Shown here piece by piece: positions 22,475 to 63,580 of a stretch of 64,000 bases of DNA. The translations under genes were made by a program, and so were the position numbers. This DNA is from Candidatus Iainarchaeum sp. (GTDB lineage: Archaea > Iainarchaeota > Iainarchaeia > Iainarchaeales > JAZDDZ01). Positions within the stretch are counted from its first letter, which is position 1; each line of letters opens with the position of its first letter. The DNA lies in contig JAZDDZ010000047.1 of NCBI GenBank assembly GCA_043809245.1, positions 32,001-96,000 of the forward strand, in the 5' to 3' direction. The notes under the pieces are model-generated. The model searched no databases, was not told the DNA's origin, and was given only the letters and a program-made list of their open reading frames with translations.

Positions 22475-22584
22475 TGGCGGGCGGGGAGGGATTTGAACCC
22501 TCGACCTACAGCTTAGGAGGCTTGCAAGAAATGCAGAAAAAACTGTCACCTCATGTTGCCCTATCCAGGCTAGGCTACCCGCCC
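22475..22584 (-). tRNA. tRNA-Arg(CCT) with 32-nt non-canonical intron (22522-22553) at position 29/30; CCA encoded
   Basis: Stems GGGCGGG/CCCGCCC, ACAGC/GCTGT, GAGGG-TTCAAAT-CCCTC; full BHB: AGG/CCT, GCAA/TTGC, GAGGTG/CATTTC with CAT and AAG bulges. Confidence 0.92.
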
Positions 22585-23510
22585 AGCAATTCAATCATCT
22601 TACGTGACCTTATTGCCTTATTGGGGTGGTAAAAATCTATGTTCTGCAAGAATTTAAAAAGCATCTCCTTATTTCTAATTCTTAGCTCGTAAGTATCAGA
22701 TATACGGTCAGAAGAGGGGGATTTTGCCACCCGCTTGTAAATTTTAAGGGTCTCGATGCCAAAGTTTAGAAGGGTCTCTTTAATTTCTTCTATAAACTTT
22801 TTATCCTTGAAAGTGAGATCTATGAAAAGCTGCTTGGCTTTTTTTGGATTTTTTGGTAAAGTTCCATCAGAATCAAATAAACCGGCTAAGTAATATTTTA
22901 GGACTGATTTATCATTTTTAATTAGGCCCGGAATCCTAAGATTTTCTTTTACTCCCCGATTTATCCCGAATATATTATGCAAAAAAGAATTCACAACAAT
23001 GCTCCTTAGCGGGAGACAAGGGATAAATCTTTTAGATAATGTCGATTTAACGCTTATTATTTTCCCCGATAAACCAAAAAGATATTCTGAAATGGAATTA
23101 ACTTTTTCCAACTGTTCCTTGTATTCATCAGAAAAAATAACCCGCTTTCTATCAGAAGTTAAACAACCAGCCCCTTGCAAATACCCGATGAAATACGCTA
23201 AATTCGGATCAAGTTGTTTAGGCAGGTGCACCTTCTTATTTTTTCCCGTAAATTCAACATTATCCAAAGCATAAACTTTAGAAAAAATCGATGAATCAAT
23301 ATTTTTAGCAAATGATTTAAGCACTCTGATTGAACAACAAGGTTTTGTTGTCAAATGCCTATGGTAATAGCCTTTTGAAATGTTTAGGAGATCAGCTGCT
23401 TGTCTACAAGTTAGACCCGAATTCATATGGCTTTCCTTTAGAATTTTAGCAATGCCGAAAATCATCACATTACTGTCAAGTTCTTCATAGTAATCTAGAA
23501 GTTTAGCCAT
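22575..23510 (-). CDS. Free-standing HTH + LAGLIDADG homing endonuclease-like protein
   Basis: LAYFIGYLQGAG and YLAGLFDSDG motifs; N-terminal HTH; stop codon lies within first 10 nt of tRNA-Arg. Confidence 0.85.
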   Translation of the reverse strand: MAKLLDYYEELDSNVMIFGIAKILKESHMNSGLTCRQAADLLNISKGYYHRHLTTKPCCSIRVLKSFAKNIDSSIFSKVYALDNVEFTGKNKKVHLPKQLDPNLAYFIGYLQGAGCLTSDRKRVIFSDEYKEQLEKVNSISEYLFGLSGKIISVKSTLSKRFIPCLPLRSIVVNSFLHNIFGINRGVKENLRIPGLIKNDKSVLKYYLAGLFDSDGTLPKNPKKAKQLFIDLTFKDKKFIEEIKETLLNFGIETLKIYKRVAKSPSSDRISDTYELRIRNKEMLFKFLQNIDFYHPNKAIRSRKMIELLGG

Positions 23511-32082: not shown

Positions 32083-33078
32083 ATGAATAATAGGGTTAGT
32101 TTTAGCTCTAAAAAAGAAGCTTCAAATTTTTTTGAGTGCGCTAGAAACACGGGAAAGTTCAATTCATGGCGGGAACTCGCTGTTTTTCTAAATGTGCGTA
32201 TTGGAAAATTGTGGGATTACAGGAAAGGGACATATTCCCTGCCTTCGGGCAAATTCGAGGCTCTGATAAATCTCGTGCCATCGCGCATGCGAAAAAGGTT
32301 CGAAAATGCCGTAACAATAATGCCCTCCAACTGGGGCCAATCAAAGGGCGGCTGCATTACTTATTCTAGACATAAAAAAATTTTCGATGACGGAAGGGCT
32401 AAAGCCAGGGAAAACAGGTTATTAAATGCAAAATACGACTTTGACTCAGCCATGCCTTTAAATGAAAAGCTTTGCGAATTTTTAGGCGCATTTATAGGAG
32501 ATGGTTTCACAAACGCTTACAACGGGCATTACATGACCCAGTTTGCAGGACATTCCAAGTTGGATGCGGACTATTACAACAATTTGATTATTCCGTATGC
32601 GAAGCAATTATTCGGCTTTGAAAAGCCATATATAAGAACAAAAGCCAATGCGTTATGGGTTACTTTTTATTCAAAAAGATTATTTGAATTTATGACTAAA
32701 AGGTTCGGGTTTCCTGCAGGGAAAAAATCCGCTTCAGTTTTAATACCTGGAGAGGTATTGGATTCAGACAAGACCAACATTTGTGCGCTGTTGAGGGGGT
32801 TATTCAATACTGATGGTGGAGTTCACTTTGACAAACGAAAAATTTACAAAACACCTTACATGCGAATCGAATTACACATGAAAAATGAACGGATCATCGA
32901 ACAAGTTTATATTGAGTTAATAAGATTGGGAATTAATGCCAAAAGAAATAGTTCAAGCACGAGAGTGCAGATAAATTCAGAACAAGCAGTTTCAACATAT
33001 CTCAATCAAATCGGGTTTTCCAATAAAAGACATCTGGACAGAATTAGTTCCAGGGGCGTTTCCAATTCCACCTCATAG
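32083..33078 (+). CDS. Free-standing HTH + LAGLIDADG endonuclease-like protein
   Basis: LCEFLGAFIGDG and LLRGLFNTDG; N-terminal SWRELA..L HTH; WGQSKGG linker also seen in 51288. Confidence 0.88.
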   Translation: MNNRVSFSSKKEASNFFECARNTGKFNSWRELAVFLNVRIGKLWDYRKGTYSLPSGKFEALINLVPSRMRKRFENAVTIMPSNWGQSKGGCITYSRHKKIFDDGRAKARENRLLNAKYDFDSAMPLNEKLCEFLGAFIGDGFTNAYNGHYMTQFAGHSKLDADYYNNLIIPYAKQLFGFEKPYIRTKANALWVTFYSKRLFEFMTKRFGFPAGKKSASVLIPGEVLDSDKTNICALLRGLFNTDGGVHFDKRKIYKTPYMRIELHMKNERIIEQVYIELIRLGINAKRNSSSTRVQINSEQAVSTYLNQIGFSNKRHLDRISSRGVSNSTS

Positions 33079-33112
33079 CAGGGGGTCGGGGGTTCAAATC
33101 CCTCTCGGGGCT
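33077..33112 (+). pseudogene. Orphan tRNA 3' half (Thr-like, T discriminator)
   Basis: AGCAGG-GGGTC-GGGGG-TTCAAAT-CCCTC-TCGGGGC-T plus T-run; no matching 5' half found nearby. Confidence 0.75.
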
Positions 33113-51287: not shown

Positions 51288-52436
51288 ATGGAAGATAAAA
51301 GGCTGAAATTTCAGCCCGGCAAGCAGAGGGCTTTGTTGGAGTTATTTTTTTACAAGCACGGTTTCACCCAAAGAGAATTAGCCGGAAGATTAGGGGTATC
51401 AAAAGGCACAATAGCAGCATATTTCACGGAGAAAAACAACCTATTGCTTTCAACTTTCCAAAAGCTTGAATCAATTGATCCCGCTGTAAAAGGATATGAA
51501 AAATTCATAGAAAAAGAATTGCCTCTCGGTTGGGGCGCAAAAAAGGGCGGTATCGAAAGGGCAAAACTTATTCCAAACAAGAAAACCTATTATGAAGGTA
51601 TAAGGCATATAAAAAAATTGAAAGAATTAGCTAACGCTAGGAAAGAAAAAGAAAAAATAGAGAATCACCCTTTAGTTGAGGAGCTAAAGAAGGCTAATGT
51701 TGATTTGGAAGCCGTACTGGCAGTTTGCCTTTTAACGGATGGCTCACTCTGCATTAAAGGAAAAAATCTTAGGATTAGTTACACAACTAAAGACCATATT
51801 CTAGAAAAGCTGCTTTTTTCAATGATGAACGAACTGTCAGCCAGGGTTCCAGGAATTGGTTTTTCACAAAGTGCTAATACCGTAAGGGTGAGTGATGACG
51901 CGCTAGCGAAAAAATTACTCAACCTCAGCCCGAATTTCAAAACAAGCCCAAGCAGACATGAGACCAACGAGGATTATCTTAAAGAACCGCAGCCAACCAT
52001 ACGCTTTCTTTCAAAATCCAATCAACAGACAAAAAAATGGGCTTTGAGGTTTGCATTCACTGCGGACGGCTACATCAGCAAGGCGGCAAATGGAAAAACA
52101 GAATTGGGGCTCTCCTGTTATCACACGAATCTTGCAATTGAATGGAAACAGATTATAGAAGAATTTGGCTTATCCTGCACGCTTGCCCAAAACAAAAATT
52201 CTTGGTGCGGCATATCTGGAATCAGAATTCAAAACATGGATTCTATTGGAAAATTTTTTCAGCTTGGCGGGTTCATAGATGGAGTTAAAATATCCAATAA
52301 AAGCAAAAAATTCAGGGGGCTGGCAAAAAACGAGCTGTTGACACAGATTGTGGAAATGGGAAAGGGAGGACTCGAACCTCCGACCCCCCGGTTATCAGCC
52401 GGATGCGCTAGCCACTGCGCCACATTCCCAAAATAA
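51288..52436 (+). CDS. Free-standing HTH + LAGLIDADG endonuclease-like protein reading through antisense tRNA-Ile
   Basis: XRE-like FTQRELAGRLGVS; LAVCLLTDG and LRFAFTADG. Confidence 0.8.
   Translation: MEDKRLKFQPGKQRALLELFFYKHGFTQRELAGRLGVSKGTIAAYFTEKNNLLLSTFQKLESIDPAVKGYEKFIEKELPLGWGAKKGGIERAKLIPNKKTYYEGIRHIKKLKELANARKEKEKIENHPLVEELKKANVDLEAVLAVCLLTDGSLCIKGKNLRISYTTKDHILEKLLFSMMNELSARVPGIGFSQSANTVRVSDDALAKKLLNLSPNFKTSPSRHETNEDYLKEPQPTIRFLSKSNQQTKKWALRFAFTADGYISKAANGKTELGLSCYHTNLAIEWKQIIEEFGLSCTLAQNKNSWCGISGIRIQNMDSIGKFFQLGGFIDGVKISNKSKKFRGLAKNELLTQIVEMGKGGLEPPTPRLSAGCASHCATFPK
52357..52429 (-). tRNA. tRNA-Ile(GAT), intronless; U6-U67 acceptor mismatch
   Basis: GGGAATG/CTTTCCC, TCCGG-CTGATAA-CCGGG, GGAGG-TTCGAGT-CCTCC. 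Confidence 0.93.
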
Positions 52437-52541: not shown

Positions 52542-52556
52542 TTGCCGCAGCGGCAA
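52542..52556. repeat. Palindrome TTGCCGC-A-GCGGCAA
   Basis: Recurrent motif (also 3495, 55838, 62406; half or variant at 51221, 23554). Confidence 0.75.
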
Positions 52557-52602
52557 TCTACTCCCCCGAAAACTGCTTAAAAGACAAAACAAGAATCATT
52601 AC

Positions 52603-53547
52603 ATGAAGTTCTCCATTTTTGATGTAGATAACCAATGGCTTGCAGAAAAAATCTGCATTGATGGAATAAACCAAGAAGCTAAAGACATTATAAAAAGTTT
52701 GGGCGGACCATCAAAAACCTGCAAACTTTTAAACTGCAAATATACGCGATTAAAAGAATGGTCTAACGGCAGGTCGCCCATACCTTTACATGTTTTGCTA
52801 AAAACGCTTAATGCATGCGCCGACAGTTTTAAGGAAAAAATCAAAAACAAGATTGACTCAAAAGAAATTAACCTCAAGGCACAATACTCGCCGCACAAAG
52901 TAAAATTTCCAAAGAAAATGACTCCTAACTTGGCTTACATAACAGGAGTAATTTTAGGGGACGGACATCTAGCCAGCAGCAAAGATAATGAAAAGGGAAA
53001 CTGGGCAATATCTGTTTGCTTTGACAATTTAATGCATCTCAAGGTCTACAATCAATATATTAAGGAAATATTCGGCATCGAGCCTAAATATTATTTTTGC
53101 CAAAAGAAGAATTATTATGTTTCCTATTTTGCATCATTGACTGTCCACTGGTTTTTAAGGAATTTCCTCGAAATTCCAAATGGTAATAAAAGCAGCCTAA
53201 TCCAAATGCCCGAAGTAATTGCCAATGGAGATGAAAAAATAATTTCAGCCTTCATTAGCGGGCTATTTGATTCCGATGGCACAATAACCAAAAACGGGGA
53301 ACTTAAATTTGCAAGCACAAGCGAAAGAATTGTACACCAGGTTAAGGCTGCGCTAGCTTGTTTCTCAATTAAAAGCTATCATTCAAAATGGCTTAAATCG
53401 GAAAAATACAAAATGCTTCACACAATCAGAATAGGCAAGGAATCAATTCAATCATTCGAGAAAACAATCGGATTTAAGCATCCAAGGAAAAAGCAGCTAT
53501 TAAAAATGTTTTCAAATAAGACTTTAGTTAATAGCCCCGTCGTCTAG
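52603..53547 (+). CDS. Free-standing HTH + LAGLIDADG endonuclease-like protein
   Basis: LAYITGVILGDG and FISGLFDSDG; HTH ...W.NGRSPIP; stop codon lies within first 15 nt of tRNA-Gln. Confidence 0.88.
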   Translation: MKFSIFDVDNQWLAEKICIDGINQEAKDIIKSLGGPSKTCKLLNCKYTRLKEWSNGRSPIPLHVLLKTLNACADSFKEKIKNKIDSKEINLKAQYSPHKVKFPKKMTPNLAYITGVILGDGHLASSKDNEKGNWAISVCFDNLMHLKVYNQYIKEIFGIEPKYYFCQKKNYYVSYFASLTVHWFLRNFLEIPNGNKSSLIQMPEVIANGDEKIISAFISGLFDSDGTITKNGELKFASTSERIVHQVKAALACFSIKSYHSKWLKSEKYKMLHTIRIGKESIQSFEKTIGFKHPRKKQLLKMFSNKTLVNSPVV

Positions 53548-53651
53548 CGGCCAAAGCAATAAACGTATTTTCGTTAAAATTATGGTTGTTGCTGCCGAAA
53601 GGATGGCAGGCTCTGGACCTGCGGACAGGAGTTCGAATCTCCTCGGGGCTA
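53533..53651 (+). tRNA. tRNA-Gln(CTG) with 46-nt D-loop intron (53554-53599)
   Basis: AGCCCCG/CGGGGCT, GCAGG-CTCTGGA-CCTGC, AGGAG-TTCGAAT-CTCCT; BHB-like CGGC/GCCG helix, CAA and AAA bulges, AGCAA/TTGCT. Confidence 0.92.
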
Positions 53652-53667
53652 TTATCCTTTTTATTTA

Positions 53668-53752
53668 AAATAAAAAAAGAAAAAGCAGCCCCTTTTTTTT
53701 GGGGCTTTGTTTTTTGCGTTTACACGATTTCGAATTGCACGCTGGCTGTCGC
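53668..53752. repeat. Direct repeat of SIMPL gene 3' end and terminator-like region (partner 54512-54597)
   Basis: Non-coding part essentially identical; coding part ATASVQFEIV* vs ATVSVQFEIV* with mostly synonymous differences. Confidence 0.9.
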
Positions 53753-53822
53753 TTTGAAAGGCAAAAAGGTTAAAAACACTATCTGCACTAATATTAGTGT
53801 AATCACTAGGGGGGTTTTTTGT

Positions 53823-62500: not shown

Positions 62501-63580
62501 TTGGAAAATCCTATTTTGACTTATAACGAATTCATAATACATTTCCCATCAATTAAGCCGAAAAGCAAGAGGTTAGCCAACAAACTGTTGCCACTGTATC
62601 CTTCCACTGAACTTGCCCAGATAACTGGCGCCTTGTTGACCGACGGGCATGTCGACTGGTATGTTTCTGACGGCAGTCCGAGAACAAGGAAAATTATTTT
62701 ATACTCAAGCAATGAAGAGGAATGTGAGTGGTTTTCTGGTTTGGTCAAAAAAGTTTTTGCCGTTGAACCAAAAATTACAGCCTATTTGCCAAAATACGGG
62801 CAATTCAAGTTGCAGCCCTACAAAGCGGTCTTAAATAATTCAGTCGTTGCCCAAACAATGATTCTTTTAGGGGTTTGCGCGGGAGACAAAACAAAATGCG
62901 GGTATAAGGTTCCAGAATGGATTCTGAATGGAAACAAGAAGATTAAAGCTGCATTCCTGAAAACTGTTTTTACTTTCGACGGTTCAAAACCATACAAGAG
63001 AAAAAATACGTGGACTATCAGCTATAGCACAACCGTGACAAAAGAAGCCCTGCCTAACGGCTTTTTGCTTTTCAAACAGCTTAACCAACTTTTAAAAGAA
63101 TTCGGCGTAACTTTCAGTTCAATTCCAACAGCACACTTGAAAGAGAATGGGAAATTCATGCTAATATCATCCGCATCATCTAGAGAGTCAATTACTAATT
63201 TTTTACGGAATTTGGGCTATCTTAACGAAAACAAGCAAAGAAGGCTGGCTTACGCGGTTGCTGAAATTTTTAAGCTCGCAAGAATACGCTCTCCAAAAAA
63301 TAACCACTTGTTAAGCAAATTCAAAAAAATTTTTGGAACAGACAAAGAAACAGCTTTTTTTGTTAATAAGCTCCTTAAAACAAAGTATACAAAAAGGCAA
63401 TTTGAGCATTTCCGGAGAAACGAAACAATGGCGCCTTTGGAAATACTTGCCTTAGCGCTGAAAAAAACCAAAACAAAAAATTATTTGCCTGACTGGGCAA
63501 AATTTTTGCACAGCCATTATCTTTCTCTAGTTCCGTTGATGAATTCTTCAACCATTTCTTTGGCTGCAGATGGAGAGTAG
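62501..63580 (+). CDS. Free-standing LAGLIDADG endonuclease-like protein with C-terminal HTH-like segment
   Basis: [12 protein letters not shown] and [10 protein letters not shown]; VP.WI linker. Confidence 0.8.

Follow-up and report, generated by a model that had tools for sequence, protein, structure and literature searches.

Enzymes of the I-DmoI type are encoded inside rRNA introns or inteins. Here we describe a LAGLIDADG homing-endonuclease gene that is free-standing and ends inside a tRNA gene. It occupies positions 52603..53547 (+ strand) of a 64-kb stretch of archaeal DNA (G000:C47:32001-96000; "the window" below means this whole stretch), encodes 314 amino acids (aa), and overlaps the 5′ end of a tRNA-Gln(CTG) gene with a predicted intron in its D-loop. 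Like I-DmoI, an archaeal single-chain LAGLIDADG enzyme, and intein domains such as PI-PfuI, this protein (the Gln endonuclease) has two motifs per chain, conserved acidic residues, and the same fold. It differs from them in being free-standing, in carrying an extra N-terminal domain of ~100 aa that resembles a helix-turn-helix (HTH), and in lying outside the gene that it accompanies, flush with the tRNA end.

The published precedents are from phage. SegB of phage T4 is a free-standing GIY-YIG homing endonuclease in a tRNA cluster; its site includes conserved tRNA sequence, it recognizes a T-psi-C motif common to many tRNAs, and it drives the inheritance of itself and of the adjoining tRNA genes (PMC2330249). 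Both SegB and the Gln endonuclease stand free among tRNA genes, but SegB belongs to another nuclease family and to a phage, and it targets a motif of many tRNAs, whereas each orthologue group described below keeps to one tRNA species. The abstract on SegB mentions neither an intron partner nor an overlap between an open reading frame (ORF) and a tRNA (PMC2330249). F-CphI with the cyanophage psbA intron and MobE with the T4 nrdB intron are described as cases of collaborative, or trans, homing, in which a free-standing endonuclease adjoins an intron that has none and the two are co-inherited through one conversion tract (PMC2790892). In those cases the intron is a group I intron that splices itself and sits in a phage protein gene, whereas the intron here is a predicted protein-spliced bulge-helix-bulge (BHB) intron in the tRNA gene of a cellular genome, and any cleavage at its insertion site is hypothetical.

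For introns, Randau and Söll have put forward the idea that tRNA introns protect tRNA genes, the disruption blocking elements that target them (quoted in PMC3218864). The idea concerns integrating viruses and plasmids, whereas the present case is a statistical tie between a single intron position and a single endonuclease gene family. The intron resembles the non-canonical archaeal tRNA introns in its BHB type and its non-canonical position, and how archaeal tRNA genes acquire and keep introns at such odd positions is an open question. We know of no case in which the protective-intron idea has been tied to a specific element, and the hypothesis has lacked a specific attacker. Literature searches for archaeal and LAGLIDADG cases (supplements not covered) found no description of the present arrangement, and other searches found only the phage precedents.

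Our preferred reading, to which we assign a probability of roughly 0.55, is that this is a site-specific, free-standing homing-endonuclease gene, that its homing site is tRNA-Gln(CTG), and that the intron is linked to it by co-conversion. Behind this reading stand the anatomy of the locus, the fold family of the protein, its catalytic residues, purifying selection on the gene, its patchy distribution, its conserved adjacency to the tRNA, and its link to the intron. A bolder extension of it, given below at less than even odds, would, if true, supply the first specific pairing of element and intron for the old notion that mobile elements attacking tRNA genes are the reason why tRNA introns exist; the tRNA would also depend on a promoter embedded in a selfish gene. 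Since one intron position, one tRNA, and one endonuclease family can be followed through 142 tRNA genes, with filled, empty, and decayed sites to compare, the reading can be tested at the bench.

The window belongs to an archaeal assembly of 1.48 Mb in 55 contigs (44% G+C, 91.8% complete), and comparisons were made across 196 genomes of the same order (coded G000 and so on, G000 being the window's own genome). An earlier note on this DNA, made from the sequence alone, had opened the ORF at position 52542. We replace this start with ATG 52603 as the likely start codon, because homologues align from there and a B recognition element (BRE)/TATA-like box lies 26 nt upstream. At its other end the frame reads ...AAT AGC CCC GTC GTC TAG, and its final five codons and stop lie inside tRNA-Gln, which begins at 53533. 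The stop (53545-53547) coincides with tRNA nt 13-15, in agreement with the note, which had the ORF end within tRNA nt 1-15. It is unusual for a coding sequence to borrow its stop codon from a tRNA and, as seems probable here, to carry that tRNA's promoter as well.

The protein matches Pfam LAGLIDADG_3 (E 6.6e-17), and the closest solved sequence found with phmmer is the PI-PfuI intein endonuclease (1dq3, E 5e-6). An AlphaFold model built from 16 homologues has a predicted local distance difference test score of 90.5 and a predicted template modeling (TM) score of 0.89. In Foldseek, its C-terminal ~200 residues match I-DmoI with TM scores of 0.72-0.78 (normalized by target length) and root-mean-square deviations of 3.0-3.5 Å. 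The matches to I-DmoI, PI-PfuI, and the TliVMA intein endonuclease have a probability of 1.00, and WhiA is also among the matches. The profile, model, and structural search together thus place the protein among single-chain LAGLIDADG enzymes with the twofold alpha-beta-beta-alpha-beta-beta-alpha fold. Motif 1 (LAYITGVILGDGH, 52924..52968, +) contains Asp120 (codon 52960-52962) and motif 2 (ISAFISGLFDSDG, 53236..53280, +) contains Asp225 (codon 53275-53277). Both catalytic residues, D120 in GDG and D225 in SDG, are invariant in 16/16 aligned homologues, as are G119 and G121 of motif 1 and D223 and G226 of motif 2, and the motifs are intact, as first noticed from the sequence. The N-terminal helical domain of ~100 aa (52603..52902, +; modeled helices at residues 23-85) is probably a Cro/Xre-like HTH. 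The Pfam scan of the 314-aa protein matched no HTH family, three of the 16 homologues have weak P22_Cro matches (best E 0.0067), and paralogues in the window match HTH_3 (6e-7) and HTH_31 (0.007). Among close orthologues, the ratio of nonsynonymous to synonymous substitution (dN/dS) is 0.11-0.16 at dS 0.57-0.88; the ORF is under purifying selection.

Orthologues (E <= 1e-30, 33-52% identity) occur in 27 of the 196 genomes, one copy each, and 26 of the 27 lie directly 5′ of tRNA-Gln(CTG); the architecture first noticed in the window thus recurs beyond it. Twenty-four orthologues have the tRNA between -24 and +58 nt from where their match stops, with a distance of 327 nt for a broken copy in G008; in G121 the tRNA comes ~370 nt after a partial match. 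One tRNA split over a contig end (G098) is counted among the 26. In G034, which holds the remaining orthologue, the contig ends 16 nt after the match and adjacency is not assessable. From these 26 adjacencies, the junction of ORF and tRNA is not due to chance. Reading through seven intact ORFs, we found the stop inside the tRNA in five, at nt 13-15 (G000, G043, and G054), nt 8-10 (G048), or approximately nt 24-26 (G029), and 7-14 nt upstream of it in two. In addition, the C-terminal tails of 3 of 10 database homologues (e.g., SPMV and APSSSGQ) read as a translated tRNA-Gln 5′ end.

Filled and empty sites can be compared within one genus, where a 1,051-bp cassette in G054 corresponds to 227 bp in G038, with synteny on either side and the cassette's right edge 2 nt before tRNA +1. 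The gene is polymorphic within genera (e.g., present in 3 of 6 genomes of genus g33). Its forms make up a decay series, from full-length genes through three apparently broken or truncated ones (an internal stop in G008; partial matches in G116 and G121) to C-terminal remnants in 11 genomes, which lack the rest of the gene and keep its final 15-68 codons beside the tRNA. In G013 and G003, where loci of 3-4 kb were searched, the last ~35-40 codons are all that remains. In the endonuclease tree, sequences from the same host family cluster; the groups f2, f11, f24, and f30 have ultrafast bootstrap values of 98-100.

The same comparisons bear on the possibility that an integrase- or transposon-type element uses the tRNA as its attachment site and carries the LAGLIDADG gene as cargo. 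tRNA genes are classic integration sites (PMC3218864), and partial copies of the tRNA 5′ end lie upstream of some endonuclease-free tRNA-Gln genes. However, the indel between filled and empty sites is only ~1 kb with a single ORF, no direct repeats flank the cassette in the window, and no integrase or transposase is encoded nearby in the window. We consider this explanation, together with a chance overlap of ORF and tRNA, which the 26/27 adjacencies exclude, very improbable.

The tRNA-Gln(CTG) gene (53533..53651, +) would have a mature length of 73 nt once its predicted intron is removed. Exon 1 (53533..53553, +) comprises nt 1 to 20a, holds the ORF stop, and was defined by the fold and by alignment with intron-free orthologous tRNAs. 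The 46-nt D-loop intron (53554..53599, +), which the earlier note had placed about 6 nt past the stop, lies between nt 20a and 21 and is predicted to be of a relaxed BHB type. Exon 2 (53600..53651, +), an exact match to the tRNA-Gln(CTG) pattern described below, holds the 3′ strand of the D-stem, the anticodon and T arms, the 3′ strand of the acceptor stem, and the discriminator A. The minimum free energy fold of 53533-53651 is a cloverleaf: its acceptor stem has 7 bp, its anticodon loop holds CTG, a T arm is present, and the D arm continues into a 4-bp helix (CGGC/GCCG), then a CAA bulge of 3 nt, then a helix of 7 bp. Its energy is -47.2 kcal/mol (z = -3.84), which none of 200 shuffled sequences equaled. 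Default ARAGORN and Rfam at the gathering score both failed to call this tRNA. A whole-genome Rfam scan detected just its 3′ part (G000:C47:85591-85651, 22 bits), and an E-value scan of 53400-53800 returned nothing beyond spurious families and one incomplete match resembling transfer-messenger RNA, which we set aside.

Splice sites were set by the fold together with a comparison of 21 orthologous introns; removing every possible intron and running ARAGORN with lax settings was rejected as too permissive. All 21 introns share the same position and geometry. The central 4-bp helix has 4/4 pairs in all 21, the outer helix 5/5 pairs in 19, and the 5′ bulge reads CAA in 20. Compensatory changes occur in both the central and outer helices (e.g., C:G to T:A and A:T to G:C). 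The exons align with intron-free orthologues, the precursor fold keeps all four arms, and the covariation supports the structure. Because of this shared geometry and these compensatory changes, the 21 sequences are taken as one homologous intron, which from its structure looks capable of being spliced.

To relate intron to endonuclease, we collected tRNA-Gln(CTG) genes with a pattern running from the anticodon to the 3′ end, which had matches in 138 of the 196 genomes and none in a reversed control. The upstream parts of these matches, together with loci already at hand, gave 142 parsed genes. A D-loop intron is present in 12 of 26 genes beside an endonuclease gene (23 full-length and the three apparently broken or truncated), at the same position in 7 of 11 whose neighbor is reduced to a C-terminal remnant (15-68 aa), and in 2 of the 105 that show no trace of the gene. 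Loci with a gene or remnant therefore have the intron in 19 of 37 cases against 2 of 105 (odds ratio 54, P = 1.5e-11), and account for 19 of the 21 D-loop introns. By family, 9 have both, 4 the gene only, none the intron only, and 16 neither (P = 7e-5). Both are Fisher tests, by genome and by family, that ignore phylogeny. The earlier note had held that equal frequencies of non-canonical introns in tRNAs with and without an adjacent LAGLIDADG gene would speak against the association; for the D-loop intron, they are far from equal. The link holds for particular tRNAs only, since most tRNAs of the window's own genome that carry anticodon-side introns have ordinary genes upstream.

Further detail comes from family f30, in which one D-arm sequence is common to all eight endonuclease-free alleles. 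Among the eight alleles with a gene or remnant, five have a D-loop that is 1-2 nt longer, two have substitutions, and one is identical. Such a pattern would be expected of co-converted donor sequence or of target variants. Only 21 bp separate the intron from the cassette; it encodes no endonuclease itself and co-occurs with the gene across genomes, which is the arrangement looked for in collaborative homing.

From these comparisons we infer a possible sequence of events that involves DNA cleavage, a target site, gene conversion, promoter use, and splicing. The cassette of ~1 kb, made up of the ORF and its likely promoter, is set flush with the first base of the tRNA, and this placement leaves the tRNA intact. 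Lacking a stop codon of its own, the ORF continues into the tRNA as far as the conserved T13-A14-G15, and the candidate promoter box of the tRNA now falls within the ORF's last codons. The enzyme would cut endonuclease-free tRNA-Gln alleles in or near the 5′ part of the tRNA (the acceptor and D-arm region), and repair from a cassette-bearing allele would copy the cassette along with adjoining tRNA sequence. The D-loop intron would be removed by the cell's tRNA-splicing machinery and, being host-spliced and 21 bp from the cassette, it could ride in the same conversion tract. This would amount to trans, or collaborative, homing of an intron that is not mobile by itself, and the intron may also break the enzyme's recognition site. 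More tentatively, and at less than even odds, we extend this to tRNA-docking LAGLIDADG genes as a vehicle for the gain, spread, and upkeep of non-canonical BHB introns: whenever the 5′ part of the tRNA is converted, the intron would ride along, shield the carrier allele, or both.

A stricter version, with collaborative homing and immunity combined, would have the enzyme cut exactly at the D-loop insertion site, the intron split the recognition site, and gene and intron need each other. The concentration of intron-bearing genes at gene or remnant loci, the frequently altered D-loops of f30 alleles with a gene or remnant beside eight identical endonuclease-free ones, the 21-bp spacing, and the phage precedent of the same logic (PMC2790892) all fit it. 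On the other hand, 14 of the 26 gene-bearing loci have no D-loop intron, and they include apparently intact, selected ORFs beside a standard D arm (G129, G131, and G029). Because of these 14 loci, intron "immunity" is unproven. Moreover, once a cassette has entered the site that its enzyme cuts, additional immunity is superfluous. Finally, the paralogous group associated with tRNA-Arg docks at either tRNA end and the group associated with tRNA-Ile at the 3′ end, ~55 bp from any D-loop (see below), a geometry that points to the gene boundary or acceptor stem and not to the D-loop. We regard the strict version as unlikely.

Several observations also weigh against our preferred reading, in which the intron is linked by co-conversion. 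The intron-free loci just mentioned count here too, among them G129 and G131, in which the gene is present and the tRNA has an anticodon-side intron only. Conversely, G023 and G039 have the D-loop intron and no detectable remnant. The remnant search covered only the 260 nt upstream of the tRNA (apart from the longer loci of G013 and G003), and the collection pattern misses 3′-side introns of >30 nt and leaves 58 of the 196 genomes without a match. The predicted 3′ splice site is relaxed, a 3-nt strand (AAA) lying opposite two unpaired nt, A14-G15, so there is no clean bulge, whereas the canonical motif flanks its central helix with two bulges of 3 nt. Searches of the window's own assembly (91.8% complete) did not find the splicing endonuclease EndA (PF01974, TIGR00324); 27 of 30 relatives have it. 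A search for sequencing runs containing this DNA listed four DNA runs, with 0.04-0.07 of the sampled words, and no RNA run. Descent of the endonuclease looks largely vertical, judging from the tree, with no clear transfer between families, and vertical descent together with purifying selection would also fit a function for the host.

Such a function could be that of a domesticated LAGLIDADG/HTH protein kept beside its target, for example to control tRNA-Gln(CTG) transcription or to help pre-tRNA maturation. The low dN/dS and the congruence of the endonuclease tree with host families agree with this, as do the fixed position of the gene, the tRNA promoter box within its ORF, the HTH domain, and the conserved box upstream. 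The WhiA match points the same way. WhiA has lost the catalytic acidic residues, has a C-terminal HTH, and is near-universal in its lineage. In contrast, the Gln endonuclease keeps both Asp residues, has its HTH-like domain at the N-terminus, and is present in 27 of 196 genomes, so WhiA is a match of fold only. Domestication also sits poorly with polymorphism within genera, with the repeated loss seen in the 11 remnants and three apparently broken or truncated genes, and with the many genomes, a majority, that express the same tRNA without the gene. In addition, paralogues behave alike at other tRNAs. The invariance of both catalytic Asp residues also speaks against domestication, which we consider improbable.

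The promoter of the tRNA is plausibly inside the 3′ end of the ORF. A TATA-like box (TATTAAAAA, 53498..53506, +), the candidate tRNA promoter, lies at -35 to -27 of tRNA-Gln and within the coding sequence, which bears out the report of a box about 30 bp upstream of the tRNA. It includes TTAAAA at -33; such hexamers start between -42 and -28 in 19 of the 41 tRNA genes of the genome, compared with 164 of 5,000 random positions. The box is also conserved between G051 and its remnant-bearing congener G003. The further suggestion that the element may supply the tRNA's promoter gains support. The box falls in the range where those 19 tRNA genes have theirs, and 11 genomes have retained the 3′ end of the ORF, as would fit selection to keep an embedded tRNA promoter. 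However, the ORF holds eight such hexamers in 945 nt, so a chance match is possible and the hexamer is weak evidence by itself.

At the other end of the cassette, the TATA-like box 26 nt before ATG 52603 (TTAAAAG, 52577..52583, +), whose spacing is similar in paralogues and orthologues, is the likely promoter of a leaderless or short-leader endonuclease mRNA. It is preceded by a conserved box (52544..52573, +) made up of a hairpin (GCCGC-A-GCGGC) and then CGGCAAT-N-TAC...CCCCC-GAAA, which may be an operator or BRE region. The motif recurs upstream of two paralogues (window 62415 and C10:38979), and a looser CGGCA..TAC..AAAA box precedes many orthologues.

The genome has several free-standing paralogues of the Gln endonuclease, and they make up, with it, a family of cellular free-standing LAGLIDADG enzymes whose apparent targets are single tRNA genes (Gln-CTG, Arg-CCT, and Ile-GAT). 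Two of the four complete tRNAs in the window have insertions, and it is these same two whose 5′ ends a LAGLIDADG ORF overlaps, as the earlier note had stated. Its description of these two as independent cases does not fully hold, for the endonucleases are paralogues at 28% identity. The other case (window 22478-23510, -) has a 311-aa HTH and LAGLIDADG ORF (22575-23510) whose TAG stop coincides with nt 8-10 of a 107-nt tRNA-Arg(CCT). Insertions lie at two places in that tRNA, in the D-loop and immediately ahead of the anticodon loop, and motif 1 of the protein reads GAG, one catalytic Asp having been lost. Orthologues of this ORF occur in 13 of the 196 genomes; 11 abut tRNA-Arg(CCT), one adjoins a different tRNA, and a contig end interrupts the last. 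In 5 of the 11 tRNA-Arg(CCT) cases, the ORF is in sense orientation at the tRNA 5′ end, and in 6 it converges on the 3′ end. The 3′ end of the ORF always faces the tRNA and often reads into it.

A third HTH and LAGLIDADG ORF (window 51288-52436, +; 382 aa), which the earlier note had passed over like the fourth and fifth below, runs antisense through the whole of tRNA-Ile(GAT) (52356-52430, -), so that its last ~27 codons are tRNA-Ile antisense. All four of its orthologues (4/4) converge on the 3′ end of tRNA-Ile(GAT). Since a tRNA gene has the acceptor stem as inverted copies at its two ends, docking at either one suggests a target that includes the acceptor or boundary region.

Other endonuclease ORFs of this genome lie beside tRNA genes or fragments. 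A fourth LAGLIDADG ORF in the window (32083-33078, +) is downstream of tRNA-Thr(CGT) and has its TAG inside an apparent tRNA 3′ fragment (~33072-33112) spanning the stretch between a CAT anticodon loop and the acceptor end. The 400 nt upstream hold no 5′ half, and the fragment could be part of a split tRNA, a disrupted tRNA, or a relic. On another contig (G000:C10:38843-40121), a LAGLIDADG ORF (C10:39018-39944) lies 50 nt upstream of a 127-nt tRNA with multiple insertions. A tRNA 5′ fragment ~175 nt upstream of that ORF shares its first 14 nt with the downstream tRNA, and the "tRNA-Gln(TTG)" with a 1,186-nt intron that ARAGORN, with introns allowed, reported across this endonuclease was judged to be a forced parse of the 5′ fragment and the downstream tRNA. 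At a contig end (G000:C3:55444-55892), the C-terminal half of a LAGLIDADG ORF runs antisense into a 91-nt tRNA-Thr(GGT).

The fifth free-standing LAGLIDADG_3 ORF of the window (62501-63580, +; 359 aa) has no tRNA beside it, and its upstream region holds a hairpin and a CCCCC-AAA box as in the Gln endonuclease gene. Many further LAGLIDADG_3 matches in G000 fall inside open frames of 500-1,700 aa and are most likely inteins. A tRNA-like gene with perfect acceptor and T arms (G000:C49:1829-2206, -) has an insertion of ~300 nt after the anticodon region that encodes an HNH-type ORF (CxxC ... HH ... CxxC-H); from its sequence, it looks like an HNH endonuclease inside a tRNA intron.

Repeats of tRNA sequence also occur around tRNA-Gln(CTG). 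In the window, 35 nt past the tRNA, the arms of a hairpin (53687-53706, AGCCCC-T8-GGGGCT) repeat the sequence of its acceptor stem; the hairpin may be a terminator. In G043, additional copies of the tRNA 3′ end lie downstream of tRNA-Gln. Some endonuclease-free tRNA-Gln(CTG) genes have an upstream copy of tRNA nt 1-15 (L075 in G038, L039/L208 in G056, L041/L210 in G049, and L104 in G066). In these four genomes, the copy is followed by a conserved AACCTTTT...AAAAGGTT hairpin and then by its own complement, the whole forming one long hairpin. A related hairpin occurs at L160 (G140), and a plain 23-nt direct copy at L044/L211 (G014). Approximately six such loci are real; most other matches to a second upstream acceptor copy were rejected as artefacts of allowing G-U pairs. 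Break repair may have left the copies as a scar, or they may be a small rival element or a leader structure. Genes for GatA, GatB, a GatE-like protein, and an AspRS of the non-discriminating type also lie near tRNA-Gln in the window.

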